DNA of 41,185 bases from an uncultured Bacilli bacterium (lineage in GTDB: Bacteria; Bacillota_I; Bacilli_A; RF39; UBA660), in the NCBI GenBank assembly GCA_947628685.1, contig CANRAT010000002.1, positions 1 to 41,185 on the forward strand, read 5' to 3'. Positions 34,724-41,112 of the stretch are shown piece after piece. Below the pieces are notes generated by a model. The model was not told the origin of the DNA. It saw only the letters and a list, made by a program, of their open reading frames with translations, and ran no database searches. The position numbers were made by a program, and so were the translations under genes. Each line of letters opens with the position of its first letter. Within the stretch, counting starts at the first letter, position 1.

Positions 34724-37087
34724 ATGGATAGAAATGCTATAATTGAAACAATTAATAAAAAAACTATTGAAGCTAAAAATCTTATTGACGAAATTAGTAA
34801 TTTAAAAAAATTACTTACTAATTATGACAATCAATTGAAGCCAAGTTTTACAAATGAGGAAAAAGTAAATATTTTTATGGACTATTTTAAAGGTAGAGAT
34901 ACTATATATGCTTATCTTTCCATAGATAAAAGGGATTCAAATAAAAAGTATTATATACCTAAATGTGCGAACGAATGGAATAAAAATATTTGTAATAAAA
35001 CTATGGGTAAAAAGTGTAAAAATTGTAGATATTGGGTGGATAAACCAATAGATAAGGAAGTTATTAGAAATCACTTATTTAATAATGTCACTATAGGTAT
35101 TTATCCGATGCTAGAAGATGAAACTTGCTATTTCCTTGCTTTTGATTTTGATGATAAAAAAGATGAAAATAGCATTAAAGAAGATGTACTTGCTTTTGCT
35201 AGTGTATGTGATAAATATAATATTCCAATTGGAATTGAAAGAAGTAGATCAGGTAAAGGAATTCATGCATGGATATTTTTTAAAAACAATATAAAAGCTA
35301 TAACGGCAAGAAAAATGGGAAGCTTATTGCTATCAAAAACTATGGAGATTCGTGATAATTTAAAAATTGATTCTTTTGATAGAATGTTTCCTAATCAAGA
35401 TACTATGCCAAATGGTGGTTATGGTAACTTAATCGCACTTCCACTACAAAGTGAGCCTTCAAAATATAATAATACAGTTTTTTTGGATAGAAACTTTATT
35501 CCTTTTAATGATCAATATAGTTATTTAAGCAAAATTAGAAAGATGGATTATGATGATGTATGTGCTGTTATTAAGACATTATCCAAAAGTACTATAGATA
35601 TTAGCAGTGAAAATATTGAAATAAAAAATGAAATTAAAGATAAGCAAAAGAACAATTTTGATTTTCCAAAAAGTATAAGTGTTATTTTAAATAATATGGT
35701 TTGTATAGATAAGGCTAATTTAAGTTCTTCTGTTAAAAATTGCTTCAGAAGACTTGCAACATTTGCTAATCCCGAATTTTTTAAAAGGCAAAGGATGAGA
35801 CTTTCTGTTCATAATGTACCAATGGTAATAGATTGTAGTAAAGAGGATAATAAATATTTAATGATTCCAAGAGGAAAATTTGAATATTTATGTGAACTGT
35901 GCAACGAAAACAATGTAAAAATGAAAATTATTGATAATAGAAATAATGGTCAAAAATTAAATATAAAATTTAATGGTAAATTGAGGGATGATCAAAAAAT
36001 TGCATTAAATGAGATGTTAAAATATGAAAATGGAATACTTGAAGCTCCAACTGGGTTTGGTAAAACTGTCATATGCTGTAAATTGATTGAAAAAAGAAAC
36101 GTTAATACTCTTATAGTTACATTTAATTTATCACTATTAAAGCAATGGAAAGAAAGAATAAAAGAATTTTTAAATATTGATGAGGTAGGGCAAATTGGTG
36201 GTAGTAAAAATACTTTAACTAATAAAATTGATGTTGCAAGCATTAAAACTATTTATAATGATGGAAAATTTAATGACGTAGTTAAAAATTATGGAATGAT
36301 AATAATTGATGAATGTCATCATTCTTCTGCTTATACATATGAGGCTGCTTTAAATATGATGAATGCAAAATATGTATATGGTATGTCTGCTACTCCTGAA
36401 AAAGAAAACGGACATACACCAATTATTAAAATGCAATGTGGCAATATTAGATATAAAGTTAATATGAAAGAATATAACAAAAAATTAAATTTGTCGATGA
36501 AAGTTTATAGAAAAAATGTACATTTGAATTTTGTTAATAAAAATATAGCAGATTATAAAATTAATGAAATATATGATTTAATATCTAAAGATGTAATAAG
36601 AAATAATATTGTTATAAATGATATAGAGAAAGAATTTAAAAAAGGTAAAAATATACTTGTTTTAACTGAAAGAATTGAGCATTTAGAATATTTATATGAA
36701 AGATTATCAAATATAACAGAAAATATAATTGTATATCGTGGCGGATTAGGTAAAAAAGTAGTAAAAAAATATGATGAAATGAATTCATACATTATAGAAA
36801 ATAATGAAAATAAAATTATAATTGCTACAAGTTCATGTATTGGTGAAGGATTTGACGATTCTAGTTTAGAAGTATTATTCTTAACTATGCCTATATCTAG
36901 TATAAATAGAATAGTACAATATACAGGAAGGTTGCATAGAAAAAATGAAAATAAAAAAGAGATAATAGTTTATGATTATGTTGATGATAATTTTTCGATG
37001 ATTAGAAATATGTTTTTAAAAAGAAAGAAAGCATATGAAAAGGTTGGATACGAAGTTATTGAAAATAATTATCAAATGTCAATATGA
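34724..37087 (+). CDS. Archaeo-eukaryotic primase (PrimPol-like) domain fused to an SF2 DEAD/DEAH-type helicase
   Basis: AEP motifs: I FLAFDFDD, II SRSGKGIHAWIFF, III DRMFPNQD. The Cys cluster CANEWNKNICNKTMGKKCKNC lies upstream. Helicase motifs: I APTGFGKT, II IIIDECHH, III MSATPE, VI QYTGRLHR. Confidence 0.85.
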   Translation: MDRNAIIETINKKTIEAKNLIDEISNLKKLLTNYDNQLKPSFTNEEKVNIFMDYFKGRDTIYAYLSIDKRDSNKKYYIPKCANEWNKNICNKTMGKKCKNCRYWVDKPIDKEVIRNHLFNNVTIGIYPMLEDETCYFLAFDFDDKKDENSIKEDVLAFASVCDKYNIPIGIERSRSGKGIHAWIFFKNNIKAITARKMGSLLLSKTMEIRDNLKIDSFDRMFPNQDTMPNGGYGNLIALPLQSEPSKYNNTVFLDRNFIPFNDQYSYLSKIRKMDYDDVCAVIKTLSKSTIDISSENIEIKNEIKDKQKNNFDFPKSISVILNNMVCIDKANLSSSVKNCFRRLATFANPEFFKRQRMRLSVHNVPMVIDCSKEDNKYLMIPRGKFEYLCELCNENNVKMKIIDNRNNGQKLNIKFNGKLRDDQKIALNEMLKYENGILEAPTGFGKTVICCKLIEKRNVNTLIVTFNLSLLKQWKERIKEFLNIDEVGQIGGSKNTLTNKIDVASIKTIYNDGKFNDVVKNYGMIIIDECHHSSAYTYEAALNMMNAKYVYGMSATPEKENGHTPIIKMQCGNIRYKVNMKEYNKKLNLSMKVYRKNVHLNFVNKNIADYKINEIYDLISKDVIRNNIVINDIEKEFKKGKNILVLTERIEHLEYLYERLSNITENIIVYRGGLGKKVVKKYDEMNSYIIENNENKIIIATSSCIGEGFDDSSLEVLFLTMPISSINRIVQYTGRLHRKNENKKEIIVYDYVDDNFSMIRNMFLKRKKAYEKVGYEVIENNYQMSI

Positions 37088-37199
37088 TTATTTATATCAA
37101 ATTTTGACTATTTATTATAATTATATTTTTCATACTGTTTTTAACAAATCATGCTTTAGTTGATTGGTATCGATGGAAGAACAAGTAAAAGGGTTGTGC
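36786..37199 (+). repeat. Direct repeat copy A (3' end of the AEP-helicase gene plus downstream DNA)
   Basis: Aligns by eye with 40694-41112 at a constant offset of 3908 nt and roughly 85-90% identity. Confidence 0.85.
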
Positions 37200-37260
37200 T
37201 TTCCACCCAAATTTTGTTTTCCCCAAGTTAAGATGTAACAAATGAGAATTTATAAATATT

Positions 37261-39014: not shown

Positions 39015-40661
39015 GTGAGTGTTATGAATAAAAAAGATTTATATGAATTATTGGATGAATTATGTGAAAAAAGTTCAAAAGAACAAATTAAAAAATTTTT
39101 GTTTAGTGTAATTGAAAAATTATCAGATAGTCAAAATAATGAAATAATAGAACTTATTAACGAGGTCTTTAATGATGAAATACAAAGTATTAATTTAGGT
39201 GATTTGGATAAAACAATAGAAAAAATTGAAGAGCAGTTTGATTTAATTAATGTTGGTAAACTACAATTTCACTCTGAAACTTATGAAACTGATGATTATG
39301 ACTACTTTGGTGATAATTATGAAACTAGTTATTATGATTCTGAAAATATTAGTAGTATTATATTAAATGCTTATAATTTAGCTTCTATATTAATTACAAA
39401 AAAAGATTATAGAAATGCAAGAAAGATTCTTGATTTAATTGTTTTTACTAATTATTCTGTTTTAGAAGATGATAGTAATGATATTTTGGATTATGAAATA
39501 AATGATATTGTATCTTTTGAATTAGTCAATGTGGATATAAATAAAATATGTTTAACTTTATTATTTATTACCATATTAATTAGCGACAATAAACTTGAAG
39601 AAATATATAATTATTATAAATTATACACTTTTAGAAATATTAAACTCGAAGATTCTTTTAGTTTAGGGTTAGAAAAAATTAAAGATTTGGATATATTTTT
39701 GCAAAATTGGATACAATTTCTATCTCAAAAAAATGATGATATTTCTTTTAACTTATTAATCAATTCTTTAGAATATAGTAATTATGATAACTATAAAAAA
39801 GTGTTAGAAATGAACAAGATAACACATCCTAAATTATGTATAGTTATATTGAAAAAAATATATGAATTAAATAAATATAAAGAAGTTATTGAAATAGGTG
39901 AAAGCATAATTAAAGATGTGGGTGATAATATAAGAAGAGATATTGCATTACTTATAGCTGAATCTTATAAAAAATTTGATTCGAATTTTGATATTAGTCA
40001 GTGTTTATACGTAGCATTTGAATCCAGTCATAATGTATCTGATTTAATAAGGATTATAAATAATGATTATTTAGTAAAATATAAAGAAGAAATAGATATT
40101 ATAAAAGAGGATCCATATAAGAACTTAAATAGTAATGCTATAGTATTGTTTAGTTATTTTTTAGGAGAATTTGATGATTTTTTAAATTTTTTTAAAGATA
40201 ATCAAGAATATTTGGGTTGGACATATTCAAATATGAATACTTATGTGGAATTAGCATTATTTTTACTATGTGATTGGAATGAAACTGAAATAAAAAAGAA
40301 ATTAGCTAGTTCAATATGCCTTGATATAGGAGTAAGAGATGATTATAACCTTTATAATGCCGATGAAAGAGGAATTGAATATTTGAAAATTCTTAATGTT
40401 TGGAAAAAACACTTTACTATTTCTGATAAAATAAAGCAGGATTATATTGGTTGGTTAGAAAAAACAGTAGCTAAACGAGTAGATGTAATTGTTTCTAATC
40501 AACATCGTGGTTCTTACAGTAAAGTGGCATTTTTAGTTTGTATTTTAGATGAGTGTCTAGAGAATCTAAATATGAAAAATAAAGGTGAGATTATTGCGCT
40601 CTATGGAAAGAAATATTCAAAATATACTGCCTTTAAAAAAGAAATCAATAAATACAAATAA
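39015..40661 (+). CDS. Hypothetical large protein (548 aa), probably alpha-helical
   Basis: Long ORF beginning 6 nt after the previous gene. No motif recognised. GTG at 39015 or ATG at 39024. Confidence 0.5.
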   Translation: MSVMNKKDLYELLDELCEKSSKEQIKKFLFSVIEKLSDSQNNEIIELINEVFNDEIQSINLGDLDKTIEKIEEQFDLINVGKLQFHSETYETDDYDYFGDNYETSYYDSENISSIILNAYNLASILITKKDYRNARKILDLIVFTNYSVLEDDSNDILDYEINDIVSFELVNVDINKICLTLLFITILISDNKLEEIYNYYKLYTFRNIKLEDSFSLGLEKIKDLDIFLQNWIQFLSQKNDDISFNLLINSLEYSNYDNYKKVLEMNKITHPKLCIVILKKIYELNKYKEVIEIGESIIKDVGDNIRRDIALLIAESYKKFDSNFDISQCLYVAFESSHNVSDLIRIINNDYLVKYKEEIDIIKEDPYKNLNSNAIVLFSYFLGEFDDFLNFFKDNQEYLGWTYSNMNTYVELALFLLCDWNETEIKKKLASSICLDIGVRDDYNLYNADERGIEYLKILNVWKKHFTISDKIKQDYIGWLEKTVAKRVDVIVSNQHRGSYSKVAFLVCILDECLENLNMKNKGEIIALYGKKYSKYTAFKKEINKYK

Positions 40662-40693
40662 TATATTTTAATATAAGTTTTTATATTAGACGG

Positions 40694-41112
40694 CATAATT
40701 GAAAGATTAAAAATGAAACAAAATCATAATTGCTATAAGTTCCTGTATTGGTGAAGGGTTTGATGATTTTAGTTTAGAAGTTTTATTCTTGACTATGCTT
40801 ATATCTAGTATAAATAGAACGGTACAATATACTGGGAAAATGCATAGAAAAAATGAGAATAAAAAAGAGACAATAGTTTGTGATTATGTTGATGATAATT
40901 TTTGATGATTAGGAATATGTTTTAAAAAAAAACGGCATATATAAGGGTTGGGTATGAAGTTGTTGAAAATAATTGTCAACTGTCATTATAATTTTTATAT
41001 AAAATTTTGCCGGTATATTATAATTATATTTTTCACACTATTTTTAAATAATCATACTTTATAATAGGTGATTGTTATGGATGAAAGAGCAAGTAAAAAA
41101 GTCGTAATCGAT
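40694..41112 (+). pseudogene. Direct repeat copy B: decayed 3' fragment of an AEP-helicase gene plus downstream DNA
   Basis: Encodes IAISSCIGEGFDDFSLEVLFLTMLISSINRTVQYTGKMHRKNENKKETIVCDYVDDNF*. A 1-nt deletion relative to copy A creates the stop. No 5' part of the gene is present. Confidence 0.8.

Follow-up and report, generated by a model that had tools for sequence, protein, structure and literature searches.

Defence-island hot spots are places at which variable cassettes are exchanged between conserved flanking genes. We describe a locus of comparable organization in an uncultured Bacilli bacterium (GenBank assembly GCA_947628685.1, contig CANRAT010000002.1), where the 3′ end of a gene encoding an AEP-TOTE primase–helicase is present twice, as imperfect direct repeats (copies A and B) that bracket a 3.9-kb unit. 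The stretch of DNA analysed, hereafter the window, is 41,185 nt long and is numbered from its first letter; L001–L029 denote comparison loci from other assemblies. As at other hot spots, the neighbourhood is common to L003 and L017, which carry other defence genes, and the contexts found behind the helicase are interchangeable (L003, L005 and L028). The locus departs from other hot spots in that the anchor is a defence gene's own 3′ end and in that the exchange left a duplicated gene end. Campbell-type integration or loop-out is a second close parallel: direct repeats flank a segment, a single-copy relative looks like the reciprocal hybrid and the segment has no recombinase of its own. Unlike the Campbell case, however, the repeats here are asymmetrically decayed and the inserted segment is a patchwork rather than a plasmid or a phage. 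With slightly better than even confidence, we interpret the repeats as a recombination scar in which a single junction of a chromosomal defence island is present twice, with an arrangement that differs from that of L003 by one crossover.

A third parallel is provided by target genes at which integrative mobilizable elements, along with derivatives that have decayed (CIMEs), accrete in tandem (Guedon et al. 2017, PMC5704250). The window resembles this situation in having a fossil element end behind copy A and a fresh element behind copy B, both following the start of an Amidase_3 relic; relatives (L008 and L011) likewise show repeated decay and re-invasion at one target. Accretion of this kind duplicates the attachment site alone, whereas in the window the duplication also takes in a spacer and ~290 nt of the gene upstream, which is unrelated, and the two sites are split by a module that does not belong to the element.

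A preliminary description of this DNA had placed repeats of about 410 bp at 36786–37199 and 40694–41112, at an offset of 3908 nt. The similarity is present and far beyond chance, with only the left-most ~14 nt weak. We delimit the repeats to ~395 bp at an offset of 3908; a repeat search gives collinear blocks at offsets 3903–3908, and the MAFFT alignment agrees. The direct comparison of the two segments that had been proposed as a check returns significant similarity: blastn aligns 36800–37190 with 40709–41098 at 84.6% identity over 396 nt (E = 8e-122). The longest exact run shared by the copies is ~24 nt, and blastn finds no third copy in the 41-kb window. Each copy comprises helicase codons ~693–787 with the stop codon and, after a spacer of ~90 nt, the opening 10 codons of the Amidase_3 relic, in accord with the content given earlier (helicase 3′ end, stop, spacer and start of a following gene), which holds for the last ~95 codons of the helicase. 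Copy A is the 3′ end of an intact, live gene, whereas copy B survives only as a dead fragment. We confirm the 1-nt deletion said to give copy B the ending ...VDDNF* (A-coordinate 36996) and find a further deletion of 3 nt. The amidase start behind copy B reads MDERASKKVVIDAGHGGIG*, and that of copy A is decayed, as had been noticed: its ATG has become ATC and similarity stops at codon 10. The DNA just beyond the repeats is almost unalignable between the two copies.

The locus that carries the argument is L003, from a sister species with a helicase 92% identical at the amino acid level and the same DUF3800 neighbour. Here the helicase stop leads through the spacer to the amidase start without the 3.9-kb unit, so that comparison with related genomes does reveal the single-copy site that the preliminary description had called for. 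Our alignment comprised both copies, L003 and five loci that are more distant. Over the left part of the repeat (36812–37048), L003 is 97.9% identical to copy A and 87.3% identical to copy B; over the right part (37051–37197), the relationship is inverted, with 82.2% identity to copy A and 95.4% to copy B (80.3% between A and B). The informative events (n = 53) divide accordingly, 26 uniting L003 with A and 3 with B on the left, 4 with A and 20 with B on the right. The maximum chi-square value of 28.5 places the break between 37048 and 37051 (permutation p ≤ 1e-5). In the last 10 residues of the helicase, L003 has VVENNCQLSL, which is also the sequence of frame-restored copy B, whereas copy A has VIENNYQMSI. 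L003 therefore combines A-left with B-right across a sharp switch. The switch lies inside the coding region. The pattern is the one expected if the two arrangements differ by a single reciprocal crossover, although differential constraint could mimic most of it. The Campbell-type event suggested earlier gains the single-copy hybrid that one crossover predicts, but the event may instead have been a loop-out deletion in the relative.

In the mechanism that we favor, the window and L003 arrangements would differ by one reciprocal homologous crossover at 37048–37051/40952–40955. The 3,908-bp segment (37051 to 40954) would have integrated in Campbell fashion via its own helicase 3′ end, or would have looped out in the relative. 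The exchange would be of the host RecA type, as no recombinase is encoded in the unit. The left homology anchor for swapping downstream DNA would be the conserved helicase end ahead of the 10-residue tail, and after the event the halves made redundant (in copy B the helicase fragment, in copy A the spacer) would have decayed. The Amidase_3 relic is the integration target of a mobilizable element with a MobV relaxase and a serine recombinase. The repeat, its asymmetric decay, the hybrid make-up of L003, the matching boundary in a near-identical strain, the recurrence of the module and the element junction are observations; that crossover rather than constraint alone made the hybrid pattern is inferred, as are the RecA dependence and any circular intermediate.

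An exchange at the same position is seen directly in L028 (protein P0052), which is 99.88% identical to the window from 33001 to 37085 (4085 nt). From 37051 on, six positions differ, and the protein differences all fall within the last 10 residues of the helicase, a tail that is hypervariable across the family. Past the helicase stop, L028 continues into downstream DNA of the L005/L006 type, which in those loci leads into a Schlafen/AlbA_2 gene. This switch at 37050/37051 indicates that downstream contexts have truly been exchanged here among near-identical strains, and it gives direct support to the alternative raised in the preliminary description, an exchange of island variants at a recombination hot spot. 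The L003 and L028 boundaries fall within 3 nt of each other. The simplest reason for this coincidence is that the block KRKKAYEKVGYE is the last usable homology ahead of the hypervariable tail; it is also possible that 37048–37051 is a preferred exchange site. In our reading, the helicase 3′ end acts as a homology anchor for the swapping of downstream cassettes.

The divergence between the repeats is strongly asymmetric. When lineage-specific changes are assigned using outgroups, B-left has 19–23 and A-left 3–5 (Tajima relative-rate p 3e-4 to 7e-3), such that copy B evolves about 5x faster than copy A. Over 61 codons, 8 replacements and 9 synonymous changes separate A from B, compared with 0 and 5, respectively, between A and L003. 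The copy B replacements include P723L, as well as R736K in QYTGRLHR, both at sites that are invariant in relatives. Among the left-half sites where B differs from A and L003, 23 of 28 carry a base that none of the relatives has; once those 23 sites are removed, the divergence of the left halves is ~3%. Given these unique bases and the 8 replaced codons among 61, most of the left-half divergence looks like later decay. The homeologous exchange proposed earlier is consequently not needed in any strong form, with ~3% left over, and decay of the redundant halves accounts for a large part of the 84% identity that the repeats show at present.

The same data bear on the age of the event. At four-fold sites, the helicase genes of the window and L003 are 18% divergent, or ~9% per lineage, and the decay of B-left amounts to 9.7–11.8%. 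Because the latter approximates the per-lineage neutral divergence, the event is about as old as the split from L003; the dating fits both directions. We also note that B-right (40955–41105) differs from L003 by just 4.6%, while the four-fold sites differ by 18%. This low divergence could stem from constraint or from recent co-transfer with the mobilizable element.

A history without any crossover, in which a local tandem duplication (from helicase codon ~693 to the end of the UPF0158–PRiA4_ORF3–p548 module discussed below) in the window lineage was followed by differential decay, with constraint retained only on A-left (coding) and B-right (promoter and element target site), would make L003 the unduplicated ancestral state. 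We consider this unlikely, but several of the observations just described suit it: the bases found in no relative at 23 of the 28 left-half B sites, A-right differences that are A-specific, and the match between B-left decay (9.7–11.8%) and per-lineage neutral divergence at sites with 18% pairwise difference. The presence of an element left end behind both copies, at similar spacing, is likewise in its favor. It does not account well for a switch located 37 nt inside the gene, where the dead tail of copy B has 1 B-specific change compared with ~3.6 expected and the live tail of copy A has 5. Moreover, L028 shows real exchange at the same boundary, kilobases of perfect tandem homology should quickly collapse, and A and B can hardly be aligned beyond the repeats, which would be surprising after a single duplication unless the element after copy B had later been replaced.

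Several considerations also weigh against the crossover. Most of the L003 hybrid pattern could arise without one if L003 were ancestral and only A-left and B-right had been conserved. The placement of the switch before the stop codon depends on no more than about 5 sites within the final 37 nt of coding sequence, and the tail is homoplasy-prone throughout the family. A single relative with one copy and the same spacer was found. Neither a circle nor a deletion allele was seen at strain level, L028 being a replacement rather than an A/B hybrid, and no circle junction (40708 to 37198) is present in the contigs of the retrieved loci. The crossover does not account for how the end of the module first came to adjoin helicase codon ~693, and for a circle to carry a helicase fragment of 390 bp, a similar arrangement must already have existed. 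Finally, the sequence extends only to 41185. With respect to the classes of event that create such structures, direct repeats flank an extra segment and a relative, L003, has the single-copy site. The ends of the unit do not have the short, near-identical core repeats of an attL/attR island (the repeats are ~395 bp long and 84% identical, with a longest exact run of ~24 nt), and they show no transposon target-site duplication of 2–15 bp; there is no transposase, and no convincing terminal inverted repeats occur at 37198/40708. The features of the region are collected in Table 1.

Table 1. Features of the repeat pair, the DNA between the copies and the adjoining genes (window coordinates)
Feature	Position	Strand	Remarks
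AEP-TOTE primase – superfamily 2 (XPB-like) helicase, intact, 787 aa	34724..37087	+	Pfam AEP-TOTE 8e-83, ResIII 1e-28, Helicase_C
Repeat copy A	36800..37197	+	live helicase 3′ end, stop, spacer, decayed amidase-relic start (ATC for ATG); repeat search, MAFFT, blastn
Mosaic boundary in copy A	37048..37051	.	37 nt before helicase stop; L003 changes from A-like to B-like, L028 to other downstream context
A-right	37051..37197	+	variant C-terminal tail VIENNYQMSI*, spacer A, 10 decayed amidase codons
Fossil left end (hairpin and promoter region) of MobV-type element	37258..37322	+	local alignment to L013 left junction, score 38, z = 5.8, 0/500 shuffles
Small open reading frame in VbhA (antitoxin) position	37370..37561	+	overlaps start of Fic stub
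VbhT/Fic N-terminal stub, 88 aa	37554..37820	+	NCBIfam VbhT 1e-17, PADLOC PDC-S04 3e-28
Hairpin with 17-bp stem, module left edge	37855..37895	.	kept with module in L007, L014, L029
UPF0158 protein, 134 aa, optional first module gene	37992..38396	+	Pfam 1.5e-10
PRiA4_ORF3 / MM3350-like protein, 199 aa	38409..39008	+	Pfam 1.8e-15
p548, predicted 548-aa alpha-solenoid (TPR-like) protein	39015..40661	+	AlphaFold2 pLDDT 83.6; 51 homologues
Terminal AT hairpin TAATATAA-GTTT-TTATATTA, module right end	40669..40688	.	read from sequence
Repeat copy B	40709..41105	+	dead helicase 3′ fragment, tail, spacer, amidase-relic start; MAFFT, blastn
B-left	40709..40952		dead helicase fragment
B-right	40955..41105		tail, spacer, amidase-relic start
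First 19 codons of Amidase_3 relic	41078..41137	+	stop codon lies in inserted element; same truncated open reading frame in L003, L006, L012, L013
Left junction (core CATGGAGG, 41119–41126) and first 59 nt of MobV/large-serine-recombinase element	41119..41185	+	94% identical to L013

A further possibility starts from two full units in tandem, with a deletion taking the first ~88% of the second helicase gene and L003 arising by recombination between helicase genes. This scenario, which strikes us as fairly improbable, draws on the location of the module in other genomes: full-length helicases of the family follow it directly in L024/25 (227-nt gap), in L026/27 and in the distant locus L009, where p535 precedes the helicase. 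Given this order, copy B may be what is left of a helicase that once followed the module. The sister loci often show deletion scars, and there is a possible microhomology (AAAATGAAA) at the junction. However, the left end of the deletion would have to coincide exactly with the usual right boundary of the module at 40688, and a genome with two intact helicases flanking the module was not found among the further contigs examined. The scenario is, moreover, more a variant of the crossover reading, with the window-type arrangement as the ancestral one, than an alternative to it.

The crossover reading can also be extended. The 3.9-kb unit could be a 'homology-addressed' defence cassette whose own helicase 3′ end would let a circle leave and re-enter any genome bearing a member of the very large helicase family, at a preferred point just before the hypervariable tail, with additional spread by high-frequency-recombination (Hfr)-like transfer from the oriT of the adjacent MobV element. 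This is a long shot, but if true, a conserved defence-gene end would act as a portable attachment site for accessory defence modules.

Site-specific cassette exchange, to which we give little credence, would make the block ending at 37050 a dedicated site for a recombinase encoded elsewhere, such as in the fossil or the resident mobilizable element, and the unit a decayed cis-mobilizable one with hybrid attachment sites on either side. Two independent boundaries within 3 nt would fit such a site, and the incoming side brings a replacement C-terminal tail and stop codon, as gene-end-targeting elements do. Accretion of decayed elements with incoming mobilizable ones is also documented (PMC5704250). 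Yet the unit lacks a recombinase gene, a far arm with ~240 nt of homology is what homologous rather than site-specific exchange typically shows, and the element known at this locus targets another site, the CATGGNGG core in the amidase relic. Homology that ends at a hypervariable tail explains the coincidence of the boundaries equally well. Assembly artefact, in which a chimeric contig would join strains or species at shared sequence, is highly improbable even though the window looks metagenome-assembled and ends in a repeat-prone element, because both junctions are recovered in independent assemblies from other samples (the left, from copy A into the VbhA-like gene, in L001 and L002 at 99.8–100% identity and the right, from p548 into copy B, in L020 at 99.3%), and a ~24-nt exact match is too short for an assembly-graph jump at usual k-mer sizes.

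The preliminary description treated the DNA between the copies as a single 3.5-kb cargo made up of a VbhA/Fic remnant and a UPF0158/PRiA4_ORF3/548-aa operon. It is instead a patchwork of (i) a fossil element end, (ii) a toxin–antitoxin stub, (iii) the tail of an amidase relic and (iv) a module found elsewhere. There is no recombinase in 37198–40708, where open reading frames match the Fic stub, UPF0158, PRiA4_ORF3 or nothing. The Fic stub and the three genes are as described, but the VbhA assignment did not hold up: the small open reading frame has no hidden Markov model support even at E ≤ 1, and its label derives from its position. The Fic stub is fused near 37791, at a short microhomology, to an Amidase_3-relic tail ending ..CVTYV*. 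In L007 and L014, the corresponding tail, ..CVTN[VI]*, comes after the NHINAGG motif of the amidase relic.

The UPF0158–PRiA4_ORF3–p548 set is a discrete, self-contained module with fixed ends. It spans 37855–40688 and recurs in L007, L014–L019, L021–L027 and L029. Homology to L007, L024 and L029 stops at 40687–40688, with different DNA beyond this point in each, and the right end is fixed in at least four contexts. The first gene is dispensable to the arrangement, being absent in L007 and L014 and present in L018, L021, L026 and L029. Besides the helicase-linked loci mentioned above, the module is found beside type I restriction-modification genes (L014–16 and L018/19), beside AbiE and HipA genes in L017, where another species has the same chromosomal neighbourhood, and in a plain chromosomal context (L029). 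Terminal inverted repeats were considered as a mark of the module ends and dropped, as they are weak, occur in L007 only and are not conserved in the window.

No match in PADLOC or NCBIfam assigns the module to a known defence system. The AlphaFold2 model of the PRiA4_ORF3 protein, with a predicted local distance difference test (pLDDT) score of 79.5, matches 2i1s (MM3350) at template modelling (TM) scores of 0.63–0.70. For p548, no match was found in Pfam, PADLOC or PDB sequence searches, and an exact-protein look-up was likewise negative. TPR-type proteins are the best fold matches to its model, although these are weak (E 3e-3 to 0.1, TM ≤ 0.26), and the model predicts a small beta unit formed by residues 85–107 and 147–160.

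Because the helicase carries an AEP-TOTE domain, TOTE conflict systems are a natural point of comparison. The name stands for TPR, OB, TBP and Effector (PMC12458937, citing Aravind et al. 2022). The systems are alike in the AEP-TOTE domain of the helicase and in the recurrence of the putatively TPR-like p548 beside it. They are unlike in that no TBP-fold protein was found here and in that the module also occurs without a helicase. The PRiA4_ORF3 protein was ruled out as a TBP component, since its model matches MM3350 only and no TBP is among its 337 fold matches, and there is no TBP-fold candidate elsewhere in the 3.9-kb unit. With the effector as the only TOTE component recognized, the module is not filed as the T-O-T part of a TOTE system. 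Nevertheless, its recurrent linkage to AEP-TOTE helicases across the loci compared suggests a functional tie, and its occurrence beside these helicases and beside other defence systems makes it a candidate for testing.

The amidase start behind copy B had been read as a gene that had decayed to 19 codons. It is instead an interrupted target: a MobV/serine-recombinase element has entered the amidase start, and the window contains the left junction of that element. Sequence past amidase codon 17 is conserved in L003, L006, L012, L011 and L008. In L013, a human-gut contig, a Mob_Pre/MobV relaxase gene (1e-29) directly follows this conserved sequence, and ~7.5 kb on a large serine recombinase (Resolvase, Recombinase and Zn_ribbon_recom domains) is encoded, after which the amidase frame resumes. 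Both attL and attR of the L013 element were identified in the sequence, and its junctions share the CATGGNGG core in the DAGHGG codons. The uninterrupted target, or empty site, is represented by L026 15231–15515, a 94-aa Amidase_3 N-terminal relic. The element as a whole is ~9 kb long (L013 1455–10690), with its right junction also present at L014 1–52.

Tn4451 and Tn4453, which combine a MobV relaxase with a large serine recombinase (PMC5704250), are the closest described relatives of this element in organization, with Mob_Pre at one end of the L013 element and the serine recombinase at the other. A relaxase, a serine recombinase, attL/attR and an empty attB can all be identified in L013 and L026 taken together; the window holds the attL side, with 59 nt. 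Tn4451 has been reported to have low target specificity (PMC5704250), whereas the L013-type element is, in the cases seen, always located at the CATGGNGG core in the DAGHGG codons of the Amidase_3 relic.

The ends of this element recur at contig ends. The contigs of the window, L003, L006 and L012 break off inside its left end, at points no more than a few bases apart, and the L014–L016 contigs start with its right end; in at least seven metagenomic contigs, a contig end coincides exactly with an element end. The presence of the repeat-prone mobilizable element explains why the window contig ends at 41185. A conserved ~70-nt motif after the amidase start was considered as a known RNA and rejected, with no match in Rfam, and a search of viral contigs for the motif, with a phage origin in mind, gave no match.

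Behind copy A lies a degenerate counterpart of this element left end (z = 5.8). In two other species, L011 (9766–9885) and L008 (8946–9060) have a solo amidase start with an element left end, upstream of the helicase. These solo copies look like fossil left junctions of the kind that follows copy A. Amidase_3 is always found as an N-terminal relic (profile positions 1–79 of 174), cut a few codons past NHINAGG and continuing into differing DNA, at L007 14270–14530, L008 7349–7624, L013 10690–10945, L014 42–308, L026 15231–15515 and window ~37791–37820. The cut after NHINAGG is a second recurrent junction.

Taken as a natural example, the locus resolves rather well how a defence island of uncultured gut bacteria may change via a 3′-end homology anchor, with scars that are still readable in the dead end of a gene, the fossil end of an element and gene stubs that have become fused. 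Two misreadings are corrected along the way, as the '19-codon decayed amidase' is the target site of an element and the 'cargo operon' is a patchwork. Current views are not overturned, since recombination-driven mosaicism is expected at island hot spots and the event proposed is of a known kind.

The setting is chromosomal, as the window carries TypA, Ddl, ParA/ParB and YchF together with a SpaA-pilin/sortase cluster. Its nearest relatives are 'uncultured Bacilli' metagenome-assembled genomes from rabbit gut. Neither tRNA nor tmRNA genes were found in the window, and no Rfam families were found in the window, L008, L011 or L012. Defence-type genes begin at ~20 kb and include an AAA+ ATPase with a GajB-like UvrD helicase, AbiD, DUF3800 and the AEP-TOTE helicase. 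To the left of the repeats lies a defence island of ~15–20 kb (window 20487–23591 and 29381–34205), with the AAA+ ATPase adjoining the GajB-like UvrD helicase, AbiD/Abi_2, two family-less open reading frames and DUF3800. The flanking sortase neighbourhood is common to the sister species L003 and L017, and their similarity to the rest of the island is patchy.

The AEP-TOTE domain of the helicase (PF22548, E = 8e-83) covers residues 46–279. PDB sequence matches of the helicase are XPB-type ATPases and a CRISPR-associated PrimPol, and the family has more than 5800 homologues at E < 1e-50. In L012 (8171–9079), the 5′ part of the helicase gene continues in frame, through a 'DQY' microhomology, as the C-terminal part of a 556-aa Schlafen/AlbA_2 gene, and in L006 (12424–12585) just the last ~50 codons of the Schlafen/AlbA_2 gene remain. 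Such deletion scars are common in the sister loci of this island family (L006 and L012) and reflect how it evolves in general. Downstream of the helicase, a close locus (L007 12807–13571) and a distant one from Traorella (L009 4875–5627) encode a family-less protein of ~250 aa, which may be another partner gene of the helicase.

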